A program made the translations under genes and the position numbers. Under the pieces are notes generated by a model. That model saw only the letters and a list, made by a program, of their open reading frames with translations. It had not been told where the DNA came from and made no database searches. Of a DNA stretch of 30,231 bases, positions 23,035-28,345 are shown piece by piece (positions within the stretch are counted from its first letter, which is position 1; the number at the start of each line of letters is the position of its first letter). This stretch comes from Candidatus Nealsonbacteria bacterium CG08_land_8_20_14_0_20_36_22 (lineage in GTDB: Bacteria; Patescibacteriota; Minisyncoccia; Minisyncoccales; GWA2-38-27), in assembly GCA_002774555.1 (NCBI GenBank), contig PEYC01000017.1, positions 1 through 30,231 on the forward strand, read 5' to 3'.

Positions 23035-24030
23035 TTATTCACTTATAAATTGTAAGGAAATCTTTCTTTTCAATTTTTGAGTATTCCCATGTCTTAGTAG
23101 CCCAAAATATGAATTGAGTGTCTCTTTTGTTTTGTTTGTTTTTATTCTTTTAAATATTCTTCTCTTTGTAGCGTTGCGGAGTACTCGATGGTCTGGGAAA
23201 TTAACCCAACCTAAAAAATCAACCCCAGAAAATAAGGTTTTTATAAATATTTTATCGGGATGTATTAACAGTTTAAGATTATTGTTTAAAAAAGATTTTA
23301 TTTCAGGCACCAAACTTTCTATCCATTTTTTATTATGATTTAAAATAACAAAATCATCTGAATATCTGATATAATATTTTTCTTTAAGTTTATGTTTTAC
23401 AAATTGGTCAAATTCATTCATATAAATATTTACCAAAAGCTGTGATGTTAAATTACCAAGGGGCAGACCAACCCCGGGTTTTATAGAATAAAAACTATCA
23501 ATAATCTCTCCTAAAAGCCATAGAATATTTTTATCCGGAATATATTTACTTAAAATATTTTTTAATATTTTATGATTTATGCTCGCAAAAAATTTCCTAA
23601 TATCGCATTTCAGAACCCAACAGGTTTTTGTATTATTTTTGCTGACTACATAATAGAAATCTATAAACCTTTTTATTGCTTTATACATTCCCTTTTCTAA
23701 CCGACACGAATAAGAGTCGGAAATAAATATTCTCTCAAAAAACGGATACAATATGCGATATACCGCATGATGGACTAACCTGTCGCGAATGCTCGCCTTA
23801 TGGATATTTCTCGGTTTTGGGTCACAGATATTAAATGCTTGATAGCCACCGTGTTTATAGGTATGATTAACTAAATCTTGTTGCAAAGACAGAATATTAT
23901 CCATTAAATTGAAAGAAAACTTCTGCACATCTTTCTTGTTTCTTTTTCCTTTAATAAATTCCTGCCAAGCCAAAAGCAAATTATTAACGCTTACTATATC
24001 CTCAAATTTATGGGTCAATTGAATCTTCAT
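23035..24030 (-). CDS. DGR reverse transcriptase
   Basis: KPRNIHKASIRDRLVHHA, KCDIRKFF, GLPLGNLTSQ, YIRYSDDFV, VDFLGW; no maturase/endonuclease tail. ATG 24030 with AAAGGA upstream; an in-frame TTG at 24093 is an alternative start. Confidence 0.93.
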   Translation of the reverse strand: MKIQLTHKFEDIVSVNNLLLAWQEFIKGKRNKKDVQKFSFNLMDNILSLQQDLVNHTYKHGGYQAFNICDPKPRNIHKASIRDRLVHHAVYRILYPFFERIFISDSYSCRLEKGMYKAIKRFIDFYYVVSKNNTKTCWVLKCDIRKFFASINHKILKNILSKYIPDKNILWLLGEIIDSFYSIKPGVGLPLGNLTSQLLVNIYMNEFDQFVKHKLKEKYYIRYSDDFVILNHNKKWIESLVPEIKSFLNNNLKLLIHPDKIFIKTLFSGVDFLGWVNFPDHRVLRNATKRRIFKRIKTNKTKETLNSYFGLLRHGNTQKLKRKISLQFISE

Positions 24031-24046
24031 AATTGTTCCTTTAATA

Positions 24047-24055
24047 CCCCCCCCC
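24047..24055. repeat. C9/G9 homopolymer between the divergent avd and RT starts
   Basis: TTAATA-CCCCCCCCC-AACC read directly from the sequence. Confidence 0.9.
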
Positions 24056-24073
24056 AACCAGTCAAATTTAAGT

Positions 24074-24397
24074 TTGGTGCAAAAATTAGTCAACGCCTAC
24101 AAGCTTTGGCATAAGTTTTTGCCTCATTTCCCAAAAACATCTCGTTATACTTTAGGGTCAAAAATTGACTCGCTTTTTATAGAAACCACTGAATCTGTAA
24201 TCAAAGCGTTTCATTCAGGCAAGGGAGAAAAATTGATTTATTTGATTCAGGCATCTGTAAAGCTTGATTTATTAAAATTCTTTTTGCAAATTGCTTGGGA
24301 AATAAAAGCGCTGGATAATAAAAAATACATTCGCCTTTCTGAAAAACTGGACGAAATCGGCAGGATGCTCGACGGCTGGTTAAAATCTCTAAAATGA
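24074..24397 (+). CDS. avd: Avd-like accessory variability determinant (four-helix bundle)
   Basis: Basic ~107-aa helical protein: FPKTSRYTLGSKID, ASVKLDLLKFFLQIAWEIK, EIGRMLDGW; adjacent to DGR RT and TR. Start codon uncertain (TTG 24074/GTG 24077). Confidence 0.85.
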   Translation: MVQKLVNAYKLWHKFLPHFPKTSRYTLGSKIDSLFIETTESVIKAFHSGKGEKLIYLIQASVKLDLLKFFLQIAWEIKALDNKKYIRLSEKLDEIGRMLDGWLKSLK

Positions 24398-24508
24398 ATT
24401 TTATCATACATAATTACTTCGCTCGGTCGGAAAAGAAAAGTAAATTTTTCTTTTCCTTTCTCGCTTGTAATTATAAACCCGCCTGATTAAGGCGGGAAAC
24501 AAAGAGAT

Positions 24509-24644
24509 TTGCGCACGGCAGCGAAACGCCAGTTCTCATTCCAATCATTCTCGAACCAATTGAGGTTCAGGTTGCGCTCATCGCTATTCCAGTTCAGATA
24601 CGGCACGTGGCGGTTGCTATCCGGATTCTGCCAGACAGAACCAA
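24509..24644 (-). repeat. DGR template repeat (TR), 136 nt
   Basis: Ungapped match to 25030-25165; 33 adenines on the minus strand; 10 AAY codons in the target frame. Confidence 0.96.
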
Positions 24645-24928
24645 TTGTACAAAATATCATCTATGCCACCACCCCTTGATTGCTCTCGGGGTTGAATCTT
24701 ATTCGGAATCCTCGCCCCGTAGTAAGCTTTGCTTTACTATTGGGGTTAATTCCTTAATATCTTGCACCAAGTATCTTTGTTTTTTGGAAATTAGAAACGA
24801 CCCTAATATGAAGCGTACCCCATATTATTCTGCGTTGTTCTAATCCCGGATCTCAATCGCTCACAGCCGTAACCGTGAGCATATCAATCTACTATCCAAA
24901 ATTATATTATCATATTCTGATCAAAAAT

Positions 24929-24964
24929 AAAATCCTTTGCGAAAGGTTTTTCGCAAAGGATTTT
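24929..24964. other. Perfect 16-bp hairpin downstream of VR (homing hairpin and/or terminator)
   Basis: AAAATCCTTTGCGAAA-GGTT-TTTCGCAAAGGATTTT. Confidence 0.75.
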
Positions 24965-25025
24965 TGTTGTTCGGACCAAGAATCCAAAAATCCAAGAAGG
25001 ATTAAGAACCCAAAAGTCCAAAAAC

Positions 25026-25574
25026 TTACTTGCGCACGGCAGCGAAACGCCAGTCCCCACCCCAACCACCCTCGAACCAAAGGAGGTGCAGGAGGCGCTC
25101 ATCGCTAAACCAGTTCAGATACGGCACGAGGCGGCTGCTAACCGGATCCTGCCAGACAGAACCAAGAGCAACAATCGGAAATTGCTTTTGCAGTCCAGGA
25201 TAAGCCGCGCCGAGAGCCAACAATTCCTCTATTCTAGCGGGACGGAAGCCCTGCTTTTCCATTTCGGCAATGGCGTCGCCAGAAGAAATGTTCTTTCCGA
25301 AACAGAAAAGAACGATTTCCTCTTCTTGCTTACCGCTCCCAGCAATTGGAAAATGTTCCTGAGTGATATCGTTGTTCACCCAGCCGTAGTTGCCAGCTTT
25401 GATCATTTGGGCAAGGGTTTGACTATAGTCAACTATAACCATGGATGTTTGTCGTTGATTTTCCATCTCTTTGCCCACCAGTTCGCCTGATAGCAACTTA
25501 TTGACGCCATTCATTCCGCCCAATTTGTTAACAACTGCTTCAATCTGCCCCAATGTTAATTCTCCGTACTTCAT
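25026..25574 (-). CDS. DGR target protein with C-terminal variable region (probable CLec-like fold)
   Basis: VR encodes the C-terminal GSVWQDPVSSRLVPYLNWFSDERLLHLLWFEGGWGGDWRFAAVRK; start ATG 25574 (or 25583); fold inferred from DGR knowledge. Confidence 0.88.
   Translation of the reverse strand: MKYGELTLGQIEAVVNKLGGMNGVNKLLSGELVGKEMENQRQTSMVIVDYSQTLAQMIKAGNYGWVNNDITQEHFPIAGSGKQEEEIVLFCFGKNISSGDAIAEMEKQGFRPARIEELLALGAAYPGLQKQFPIVALGSVWQDPVSSRLVPYLNWFSDERLLHLLWFEGGWGGDWRFAAVRK
25030..25165 (-). repeat. DGR variable repeat (VR)
   Basis: 118/136 identical to TR; all 18 differences are at TR adenines (9 A>G, 6 A>T, 3 A>C). Confidence 0.96.
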
Positions 25575-25682
25575 AATACACATCCTTTCCCGGCTTTTTG
25601 CCGAAAAAATTCCCTCTGCCCGAGGTTTTAGGGGTCGCTAAATGCGACAATTTGTTTTATAAAAGAACACTACTCTGTCCTA

Positions 25683-25712
25683 ATTATACCATATCATCTT
25701 GCTACTTGTCAA
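25683..25712 (-). promoter_or_regulatory. Consensus sigma70 promoter upstream of the DGR target gene
   Basis: Minus strand TTGACA-N18-TATAAT with extended TGn. Confidence 0.7.
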
Positions 25713-25722
25713 GCTCTTACAT

Positions 25723-26833
25723 CCTGAATTCAACCTGCAAGCGCAACACTTGGCATATTAATGCTAATGTTAAAACGATTCAATTTTTTTGAAAACATTT
25801 CTAAGGGTGTCTTCCAGCCGAGCCGTTTTCTGGGCCGGTGGTTAAGGTTGTTCTCAACTTCTTGTATTTCCTCGTCAGATATCATAGTAAAATCTGTTTT
25901 CTTTGGAAATAAATCTCTGATTAAGCCATTGGTATTCTCGTTGGTCCCTCTTTCCCAGGAATGATAAGCATGAGCAAAGAAACATTTAAACCCTGTTCTC
26001 TTTTCGAGCTCTTCCCATTTTTGATTTTCAAAGCCGTTATCAAAGGTAGCTGTTTGTTTCAGTCTTTGGGGTAGATTTTTAACCCTGCTTTCTATTGCCA
26101 GAACGGTGGCTTCGCTGCTTTTATCTCTTAATTTGGTGATAAGCACTAATCCTGTTTTTCTCTCAACAAACGTGTTAATTCCAGGTTTATGATCTTTTGA
26201 TTCAACTGTGTCTGACTCCCAGTCGCCTATACGAATTCTATCACTAACAATCATAGGGCGTAAATCAATAGATAATCCTTTAACAGTTGAAGATGTTCTC
26301 TGACAGCGTCTCATTCCTTTATGGGTTCTACGTTTCTTCTTTCTTCTTAAGTAGGGCCTTAAATCCTCATAACCAGGCTTCAACAATCCCCAGCCATTTC
26401 TGTGTATTTGATGATATATGAATCGGTATATTGCTTCGTGAGATATGGAATAACCGGGCAAGTCTTCTTTAATCCTGCCTGCTATCTGCTCTGGCGATGT
26501 TCTCTTCTTTAATTCTCGTATCACATAAGCTCTGATAGTGTCATTCTTTAATCTTTCTGTTCTGCCTCTTAAGCCTCTCTTTTTTAAGGCTCTTTCATGA
26601 GCTGCTCTGGGAATATATCTTCGTCTCCCAAGAGAATCCAGATTCCTCTTAATTTCTCTGGACACAGAAGAAGGTGAACGACCTAATGCCGCGGCAATGG
26701 TTCTGATTGAGGTTTTTTGCCACAACATCTCTTGTATTCTCTCCCTTTCCTCAACCGTAAAATGTGTATATTTCATATCACTTTGATAATACATTATTTT
26801 ATCAAAGTGTTGCACTTACTTGTTGAACTAACG
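25723..26833 (-). mobile_element. IS30-family insertion sequence, 1111 bp, 3-bp target duplication (CAT)
   Basis: Imperfect terminal IRs CCTGAATTCAACCTGCAAGCGCAACACTT / CGTTAGTTCAACAAGTAAGTGCAACACTT (core 19/23); CAT at 25720-22 and 26834-36. Confidence 0.9.
25730..26776 (-). CDS. IS30-family DDE transposase
   Basis: HTH IAAALGRSPSSVSREIKRN, SPEQIAGR, ISHEAIY, GDWESDT, TFDNG, WERGTNENTNGLIR; stop codon lies within the terminal IR. Confidence 0.95.
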   Translation of the reverse strand: MKYTHFTVEERERIQEMLWQKTSIRTIAAALGRSPSSVSREIKRNLDSLGRRRYIPRAAHERALKKRGLRGRTERLKNDTIRAYVIRELKKRTSPEQIAGRIKEDLPGYSISHEAIYRFIYHQIHRNGWGLLKPGYEDLRPYLRRKKKRRTHKGMRRCQRTSSTVKGLSIDLRPMIVSDRIRIGDWESDTVESKDHKPGINTFVERKTGLVLITKLRDKSSEATVLAIESRVKNLPQRLKQTATFDNGFENQKWEELEKRTGFKCFFAHAYHSWERGTNENTNGLIRDLFPKKTDFTMISDEEIQEVENNLNHRPRKRLGWKTPLEMFSKKLNRFNISINMPSVALAG

Positions 26834-28345
26834 CATCTTCTCCGGGGCTGAAATCCCCAGTAAATCTAAAGTGTTTTTGAGAACAATTTTTGTGGCTGAT
26901 ATTAAAGCAAACCGGGCTTTACTTAATTCTTTATCTTCGGAAATCACCCGGCAGTTTTCGTAAAATTGGTGAAAAGCGTCAGCTAACTGAACTACATACT
27001 GAGGAATTCTCTGAACTTGAAAATCTTTAGCAGTATCTTCAATAATTTCCGGAAACCTAATCAATTGTTTAATCAAATTCAACTCGCTCGGATGATTTAA
27101 TAATTGAAAATTGAAAATTGAAAATTGAAAATTATTTTGCGCTTTGCGCAAAATGCTTGATACCCTCGCATAAGCATATTGGACATAATAAACCGGATTT
27201 TTCTCTGACTGTTCTTTTGCCAAATCCATATCAAAATTCAAATGACTATCGGGACTTCTCGTTAAAAAGAAAAATCTAGCAACATCTAAACCAACTTCAT
27301 CTATTAATTCTTCGAGCCCCACATAATTACCGGTTCTTTTTGACATTTTAAATTCCTGGCCCTCTTTAAAAAGCTTAACTAACTGCATTAAAACAACAGT
27401 TAATTGTTCTTTTTTATATCCTAATGCCTCTGCCGCTGCTTTTAATCTGGCGATATAACCATAATGGTCAGCTCCCCAAAAGAAAATCAGCTTATCAAAA
27501 CCGCGCTCAAATTTGTTTTTCAAATAAGCAATATCCGAAGCAAAATAGGTTTTCTCGCCATCTGCTTTCACCAACACTCTATCTTTATCATCTCTAAATT
27601 CAGTTGATTTAAACCACAAGGCGCCGTCTTTTTCATAAGCTAATTTCTTTTTTTTCAGCCAATTTAAAATTTTATCAACTTCTTTGTTTTTATACAGATT
27701 TTTTTCCGAAAACCAAACATCAAATTTAATTTTTAGCTTTTTAGTGATAAATTTTTGATTTTCTTTTTGAATTTGTAGGGCTGTTCTCTTTTCTCCTTTG
27801 TAAAACCCTTTTTTCAGAGCTTCTATTTGTTTACCCCGATCATTAATATAGTATTCACGGCATATCTTATATCCTGCTTTTTTAAAAACATTTGCCAAAA
27901 CATCTCCGCAAAATCCTCCCCGGCCGTTCCCCAAAGTTAAAGGACCTGTGGGATTGGCCGAAATAAACTCTATATTTACCCTGTTAAATCCGCCTTTGGC
28001 GGTGTCCCGCTGAAAGCGGGACAATTTAACAGGGTGAATTTTTTGCCCAAATTTTTCCTTTTCTTTTAAAATCTCCCCAACCTGTTTTTGTAAATATTCT
28101 TTTGAAATAAAAAAGTTAATAAACCCCGGTTTAACAATCTCTATTTTTTCGATAATACTGCTTTTTATTCTTGATTTTATCATTTCTGCTATTCTCATCG
28201 ACTCCTTTCCCGTCACCATTGCAACATTCGTCGCACAATCCCCATACTCTTTCCCCCTCGGCTGTTCAACCAAAATCTCGGAAACCTTGTACCCAAGCTC
28301 TTTAATCGCTTTTTCTATTAATTTCCCGATCTCTTCTCTAACCAT
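26828..28345 (-). CDS. argS: Arginyl-tRNA synthetase
   Basis: EFISANPTGP, TYFASDIAY, WGADHYGY, KMSKRTG, NPVYYVQYAYAR, GISAPEKM. Confidence 0.95.
   Translation of the reverse strand: MVREEIGKLIEKAIKELGYKVSEILVEQPRGKEYGDCATNVAMVTGKESMRIAEMIKSRIKSSIIEKIEIVKPGFINFFISKEYLQKQVGEILKEKEKFGQKIHPVKLSRFQRDTAKGGFNRVNIEFISANPTGPLTLGNGRGGFCGDVLANVFKKAGYKICREYYINDRGKQIEALKKGFYKGEKRTALQIQKENQKFITKKLKIKFDVWFSEKNLYKNKEVDKILNWLKKKKLAYEKDGALWFKSTEFRDDKDRVLVKADGEKTYFASDIAYLKNKFERGFDKLIFFWGADHYGYIARLKAAAEALGYKKEQLTVVLMQLVKLFKEGQEFKMSKRTGNYVGLEELIDEVGLDVARFFFLTRSPDSHLNFDMDLAKEQSEKNPVYYVQYAYARVSSILRKAQNNFQFSIFNFQLLNHPSELNLIKQLIRFPEIIEDTAKDFQVQRIPQYVVQLADAFHQFYENCRVISEDKELSKARFALISATKIVLKNTLDLLGISAPEKMR
27104..27133. 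repeat. Heptamer microsatellite (TTGAAAA)4TT inside argS
   Basis: Direct count; encodes NFQFSIFNFQ. Confidence 0.85.
27978..28035. repeat. Composite inverted repeat, family B, in frame in argS
   Basis: ACCCTGTTAAAT/ATTTAACAGGGT enclosing CCGCC-TTT-GGCGG and TGTCCCGCT-GAA-AGCGGGACA. Confidence 0.8.

Follow-up and report, generated by a model that had tools for sequence, protein, structure and literature searches.

A DGR whose avd gene lies between template repeat (TR) and reverse transcriptase (RT), on the strand opposite to both, raises the question of whether RNA running from TR into RT crosses avd in antisense and thereby sets the supply of Avd relative to RT. We sought to answer this question for such a locus in a 30,231-nucleotide stretch of DNA from Candidatus Nealsonbacteria bacterium CG08_land_8_20_14_0_20_36_22 (contig PEYC01000017.1, hereafter the window), whose source genome is small (~0.5 Mb) and low in GC. 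The locus has the following parts.

23035-24030, minus strand: DGR reverse transcriptase, 331 aa from ATG 24030 (RVT_1, 4.9e-21)
24074-24397, plus strand: avd, conserved Avd domain, 107 codons from TTG 24074
24509-24644, minus strand: template repeat (TR), 136 nt
25030-25165, minus strand: variable repeat (VR), within the 3' end of the target ORF
25026-25583, minus strand: DGR target gene, an ORF of 182-185 aa with likely start ATG 25574
25683-25712, minus strand: predicted promoter 5' of the target gene, sigma-70-like TTGACA-18-TATAAT with TG before the -10, 12 of 12 matches
24929-24964, both strands: terminator-like hairpin of 16 bp that follows the target gene and carries a T-rich tail on either strand

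Along the minus strand the order is target gene with VR (-), TR (-), avd (+) and RT (-), avd being divergent from RT and convergent with TR, exactly as the preliminary description had placed them. The TR and VR are 87% identical over 136 nt, and 18 of their 18 differences fall at TR adenines. With this adenine-specific repeat pair, an adjoining RT, and a VR at the 3' end of the target that ends 2 nt before the stop codon (25026-25028), the locus is a DGR. The RT ORF is open over 23035-24093(-), the alignment of RT to its relatives begins at residue 1, and the true start is most likely ATG 24030; NCBIfam RT models matched RT only below cutoff. The avd product matched PF22296 bAvd (7.9e-18, 65.4 bits against a cutoff of 40) and also NF033474 DivGenRetAVD (1.8e-19), here with 70 bits, under that model's 80-bit cutoff. 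Comparison of the Avd sequence with solved structures gave no match, and the target gene matched no Pfam or NCBIfam family.

The preliminary description had called this layout unusual and had suggested a survey of avd orientation in the RT clade. We ran this survey on the best 80 of 559 RT relatives, taken from one-genome-per-species contigs and 60-73% identical to the RT of the window. All of these best 80 of 559 loci came from CPR/Patescibacteria MAGs. Upstream sequence was available for 75 of the 80, and in 75 of 75 avd lay immediately upstream of RT and was divergent from it. About 55 of these best 80 of 559 loci yielded an adenine-biased TR/VR pair, and every pair detected lay on the RT strand, upstream of avd. 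An orientation shared by 75 of 75 related loci indicates that the layout is not a product of chance. The order in the window, in which avd stands between TR and RT and is read from the other strand, is moreover that of Architecture B3, TR-(avd)-RT, which Wu et al. 2018 (Nucleic Acids Res 46:11, PMC5758913) defined and observed in 90% of the CPR set that they examined; cassettes of the B3 type require at least two transcription units (PMC5758913). With the order common among its relatives and already catalogued, the description as unusual no longer holds: within the Patescibacteria (CPR) DGR clade the locus is an ordinary one, and its layout has been published. CPR Architecture B3 cassettes (PMC5758913) share with the window the order and orientation of TR, avd and RT, the host group, and a small target with a 3' VR, and we found no difference in layout between them. 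The closest known systems also include DGR clade 2 of Roux et al. (bioRxiv 10.1101/2020.04.01.020958).

A second doubt was whether the orientation of avd reflected an inverted segment introduced by assembly or binning. Contigs assembled from four DNA runs of different studies were found to bridge the 5' end of RT, avd and TR, over the following spans.

23838-25978: bridging contig of run X1
23838-24480: bridging contig of run X8
23838-24653: bridging contig of run X11
23643-24531: bridging contig of run X10

Since the contigs of all four runs bridge the junctions, the orientation of avd is not an assembly inversion. The same order recurs in 75 independent MAG loci, and we consider the chance of an artefact negligible. 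The contigs also provided several observations on the surroundings of the locus. Contig cover falls over the VR (25072-25238) in X8, X10 and X11, a drop that we did not count as evidence of diversification. An IS30-family element (25720-26833; transposase ORF 25730-26815, with HTH_38 and a weak rve match) lies just upstream of the target promoter, which itself is located ~100 nt upstream of the target gene and ~10 bp from the end of the element. In a contig of run X10, which derives from a ~92% relative, 25719 is followed directly by 26834 and 1114 nt are absent; that allele is without the insertion, and the IS30-family element is polymorphic. Farther along, at 27076-27242, contig depth summed over all runs leaps to several thousand, with many loose ends at 27102 and 27133-27138, which suggests a short sequence common to many organisms or a repeat in the large ORF 26828-28345.

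With the layout secured, the question became where the TR RNA ends. Two hairpins lie between TR and the avd stop codon.

24470-24496, minus strand: GC-rich hairpin with T-rich tail, 12 nt after TR (CCCGCCT-taatc-AGGCGGG, stem-loop 24496-24478)
24429-24456, plus strand: AT-rich hairpin of 11 bp located 32 nt beyond the avd stop codon, its plus-strand tail T-rich

The first of these has the GC-rich stem-loop and T-run of an intrinsic terminator. In the window it has 7 pairs, 6 of them GC, and its T-tail is weak (TTTATAATT, 6 T in 9). Across the relatives, 46 of 54 loci had, at most 60 nt from TR, a hairpin whose following 9 nt included 6 T or more, compared with 9 of 1038 control windows (0.9%). 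The hairpin begins 3-16 nt from TR and its stem measures 6-11 bp. The sequence of the stem varies between loci while its pairing is kept through compensatory changes. In most relatives the signal abuts or overlaps the avd stop codon, and the T-run after the stem is kept wherever that stop falls. From the end of TR to the avd stop there are 111 nt in the window; the median in the relatives is 16.5 nt, and only one of them (L046, 105 nt) is similar. This gap (24397-24509) contains an insert of ~80 nt between the post-TR hairpin and the avd stop that is missing in most relatives, and it is in this insert that the AT-rich hairpin lies, a possible terminator of avd. Judged by its sequence and its conservation, the post-TR hairpin is probably an intrinsic terminator of the TR RNA, which would probably end before avd, near 24470.

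Stem-loops at this position have been read differently. Handa et al. (bioRxiv 10.1101/2023.10.23.563531) reported that 207 of 278 Avd-containing DGRs, CPR ones among them, have stem-loops immediately 3' to TR, and interpreted these as Avd-binding elements that are followed by more functional spacer. If their reading applies, then the hairpin here may not terminate transcription, or may do so only in part. The hairpin would then be mainly the equivalent of the Avd-binding stem-loop of BPP-1, and the functional RNA would continue as spacer into the antisense of the 3' end of avd. Its position 3-16 nt after TR and its stem of 6-11 bp do resemble Sp 3-33 of BPP-1. The retention of the T-run irrespective of the position of the avd stop argues against this reading, as does the window itself, where an unrelated insert of ~80 nt follows the hairpin and the element has nevertheless not been lost. 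The codons of avd provided a further test. A codon-level profile of 72 avd genes showed no excess synonymous identity anywhere (observed/expected 0.93-1.16), and it was equally flat in the 3' third, where a BPP-1-like spacer would fall; the 3' codons of avd are thus under no extra synonymous constraint. We therefore regard a mainly Avd-binding role with a spacer reaching into avd as unlikely. The two functions are not mutually exclusive, and the probable terminator may at the same time correspond to the Avd-binding stem-loop of BPP-1. The flat profile also led us to reject a sequence-conserved antisense RNA element overlapping avd, sequence conservation being what this profile examines.

On the other side of TR, the comparison of relatives uncovered a promoter-like motif and a large structured domain, both on the minus strand.

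24904-24912, minus strand: predicted extended -10 promoter of the TR RNA, TGnTAnAAT, here TGATAATAT
24645-24897, minus strand: conserved structured RNA domain directly 5' of TR (RNAalifold, covariation)
24880-24872/24867-24859, minus strand: helix of this domain
24835-24817/24814-24797, minus strand: helix of this domain
24767-24756/24658-24647, minus strand: helix of this domain
24752-24749/24709-24706, minus strand: further helix of this domain
24692-24684/24679-24671, minus strand: further helix of this domain

In columns 148-156 of alignment A2, the fixed positions of the extended -10 were occupied by T in 44 of 53 loci, G in 40 of 53, T in 52, A in 51, A in 36, A in 38 and T in 52. RNAalifold applied to the 53 loci gave 42 pairs in the 5' domain, 37 of them with compensatory changes. 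Of the cells at these pairs, 97.4% were paired, compared with 38-49% when partners were slid and 70% after shuffles. The covarying structure spans ~215-250 nt across loci, and the 12-bp helix that closes it stops 3 nt short of TR. An Rfam search returned no family for the TR leader, only the sub-threshold chance matches rli38 and rox1.

These features can be set against BPP-1, whose cassette is mtd-avd-TR-brt. Both systems combine RT with Avd and adenine-specific transfer from TR to VR, and both have a GC-rich 3' end common to TR and VR (IMH-like) and a stem-loop just after TR. The duplex that stands just before TR in BPP-1 ('cPRT Stop') has a likeness here in the 12-bp helix 24767-24756/24658-24647. 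In contrast to BPP-1, avd is here inverted and placed between TR and RT, the starts of avd and RT overlap, the post-TR hairpin is followed by a T-run, and the long structured RNA lies 5' of TR, where BPP-1 has a 140-nt spacer 3' of it.

We could now return to the transcript that had been proposed to run from TR through RT, antisense to all of avd. If TR and RT were co-transcribed as in BPP-1, then pairing of this RNA with avd mRNA, or transcriptional interference, could set the ratio of Avd to RT. TR and RT do lie on the same strand with only avd between them, and the functional RNA of BPP-1 reaches 140 nt past TR. A search for a conserved sigma-70-like RT promoter upstream of the repeat tract described below found none at a fixed position among the relatives, so read-through from TR is a possible source of RT mRNA. 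Within the window, TTGACT-17-TAAATT (24093-24065, 9 of 12 matches) was considered as an RT promoter and rejected, as it was no better than expected from shuffled sequence. Co-transcription is at odds with the conserved hairpin and T-run found directly after TR in 46 of 54 loci, with the lack of excess synonymous conservation anywhere in avd, and with the location of the conserved structured RNA, which is 5' of TR and not 3'. With a terminator-like signal closing the TR unit ahead of avd, the main RNA species is not expected to be a long antisense transcript through TR and RT. This signal, the predicted promoter and 5' structure belonging to TR itself, and the flat synonymous identity of avd together disfavour the proposal, and we judge co-transcription quite improbable, somewhat more so than the spacer reading of the hairpin. 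The alternative that the preliminary description had itself allowed, in which the TR RNA stops short of avd and RT is transcribed from a start of its own, fits the sequence better. Its proposed end of the RNA near 24400 would probably have to be moved to about 24470.

If Avd supply is not set by antisense RNA from TR, the start of avd deserves scrutiny. Here too the comparison of relatives departed from the simplest annotation, and pointed to an additional 5' segment.

24010-24073, plus strand: probable true 5' end of the avd ORF, with ATG 24010 antisense to the RT His7 codon CAT

In the relatives, no start codon is conserved at the Avd domain: the residue two codons upstream of it is Leu, for which all six codons are used, or else Ile or Met. 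A position where Leu is encoded by all six codons is not a start codon, and TTG 24074, to which this position corresponds, was therefore rejected as a general rule for the real start of avd. In 72 of 72 loci no stop codon interrupts the avd frame from the tract onward. An ATG-led frame opens into the tract in 70 of 71 loci against 26.7 expected from shuffles, and the frame from the ATG at His7 to the tract is open in 45 of 47 relatives against 28 expected. The codons of RT bear the mark of this second reading: His7 is CAT in a ratio of 47:1, compared with 342:238 elsewhere in RT, and Leu5 is never TTA or CTA (0 of 34, versus 33% elsewhere), codons that would be stops in the antisense. From this codon bias and these open frames we infer that the avd ORF probably begins inside RT codon 7. 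Counted from this start, the ORFs of avd and RT share 21 nt in a head-to-head overlap, and the 5' ends of their mRNAs must then overlap as well, which implies a limited antisense overlap at the 5' ends of avd and RT. In the window, the reading from ATG 24010 is one base out of the Avd-domain frame and yields a 34-aa product ending at TAA 24112-24114; skipping one C in the tract would give a 128-aa Avd from the same ATG. In 39 of 47 loci the avd ATG is preceded at 11-18 nt by a -10-like motif (AATAAT/TAATAT), with no Shine-Dalgarno sequence (23990-24009, plus strand, in the window), an arrangement that would fit a nearly leaderless avd mRNA. Read on the other strand, the motif coincides with the conserved 'EDII' codons of RT, so that it is indistinguishable from coding constraint.

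The frame of avd in the window depends on a homopolymer within this 5' segment.

24047-24055, C9 on the plus strand (G9 on the RT strand): homopolymer in the avd 5' ORF, 16 nt upstream of the RT ATG

A repeat tract between the starts of avd and RT was present in 71 of 75 relatives from the best 80 of 559, at 10-21 nt upstream of the RT ATG. On the RT strand it was G6-14 in 64 loci, (GT)n in 5 and (GA)n in 2. In flanking DNA, serving as control, there were four G/C runs of at least 7 in 459.5 kb. Tract length was unlike in 5 of the 6 closest locus pairs. Among the samples, the contig of the 92% relative from X10 carries A24046C, which extends the tract to C10, and the X11 contig has C8 at a depth of 3.5, a reading that could be a homopolymer error. 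The ATG frame coincided with the Avd frame in 5 of 47 loci when the His7 ATG was used, or in 17 of 72 with any ATG. Loci that were out of frame divided equally between frames +1 and +2 (21:21). With so few loci in frame, most assembled alleles would be off, unless the frame is restored by slippage in the RNA.

The simplest reading of these data is that the tract would act as a slipped-strand on/off switch on avd. Its main rival places the effect of the tract at the RNA level, through transcriptional slippage or ribosomal frameshifting that would provide a steady low level of Avd, or through an element in the 5'-UTR of the RT mRNA. A system that always needs a shift would fit the finding that in-frame alleles are rarer than one third (5 of 47), and a role in the RT mRNA would fit the location of the tract 10-21 nt upstream of the RT ATG. 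The equal division between frames +1 and +2 is unexpected for a directional recoding signal. The replacement of the G-run by (GT)n or (GA)n in 7 loci speaks against the RNA-level reading too, as do the differences in tract length between the closest loci and between samples, and we give it a low probability, comparable to that of the spacer reading above.

The proposed slipped-strand switch resembles the SSR contingency loci of Campylobacter, Neisseria and Haemophilus, with their intragenic poly-G/C tracts. In those loci the 5' coding region holds a homopolymer or dinucleotide tract that varies in length among close relatives or samples and sets the frame of the ORF, as the tract here would do for the probable avd ORF. 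The differences are that the gated gene would here be the helper of a targeted-mutation machine in a non-pathogenic, uncultured lineage, and that in-frame alleles are rarer than one third.

Taken together, the evidence favours, with reasonable though far from complete confidence, a CPR-clade DGR of Architecture B3 that is expressed as separate units rather than as one operon, with a terminated TR RNA and with Avd set at the shared 5' region. The first unit would be the target gene with its own promoter and terminator. The second would be an autonomous TR RNA of ~430 nt, made up of the extended -10 (24912-24904), the 5' domain, TR, and the hairpin with its U-run (24496-24470). The third would be avd (+), with an ORF running from ATG 24010 in RT codon 7 through the C9 tract, and the fourth RT (-) from ATG 24030. 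Avd supply would more likely be set at the shared 5' region of avd and RT, where the tract would put avd in or out of frame. Whether this amounts to a general design of CPR DGRs, comprising an autonomous terminated TR RNA with a 5' protein-recognition structure, head-to-head avd and RT, and phase-variable hypermutation through the avd repeat, is a proposal that we find evenly balanced between belief and doubt. In the literature searched, outside which Paul et al. 2017 falls, we found no mention of the post-TR terminator, the 5' structured RNA, the avd/RT overlap or the repeat tract.

Taken by itself, the layout of the locus is nothing new, since CPR DGRs are already catalogued with this order as their norm. 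What is gained is a case against the antisense-RNA idea and for a self-contained TR RNA, with a predicted promoter and a probable 3' end, together with a start region of avd and RT that contains a slippery tract. If this is confirmed, then the mechanism known from BPP-1, with its 3' spacer and single operon, would not transfer unchanged to the largest natural reservoir of DGRs, and targeted hypermutation in CPR bacteria would be under heritable, stochastic on/off control. Were the switch real, lineages could lock in a useful variant by turning Avd off.
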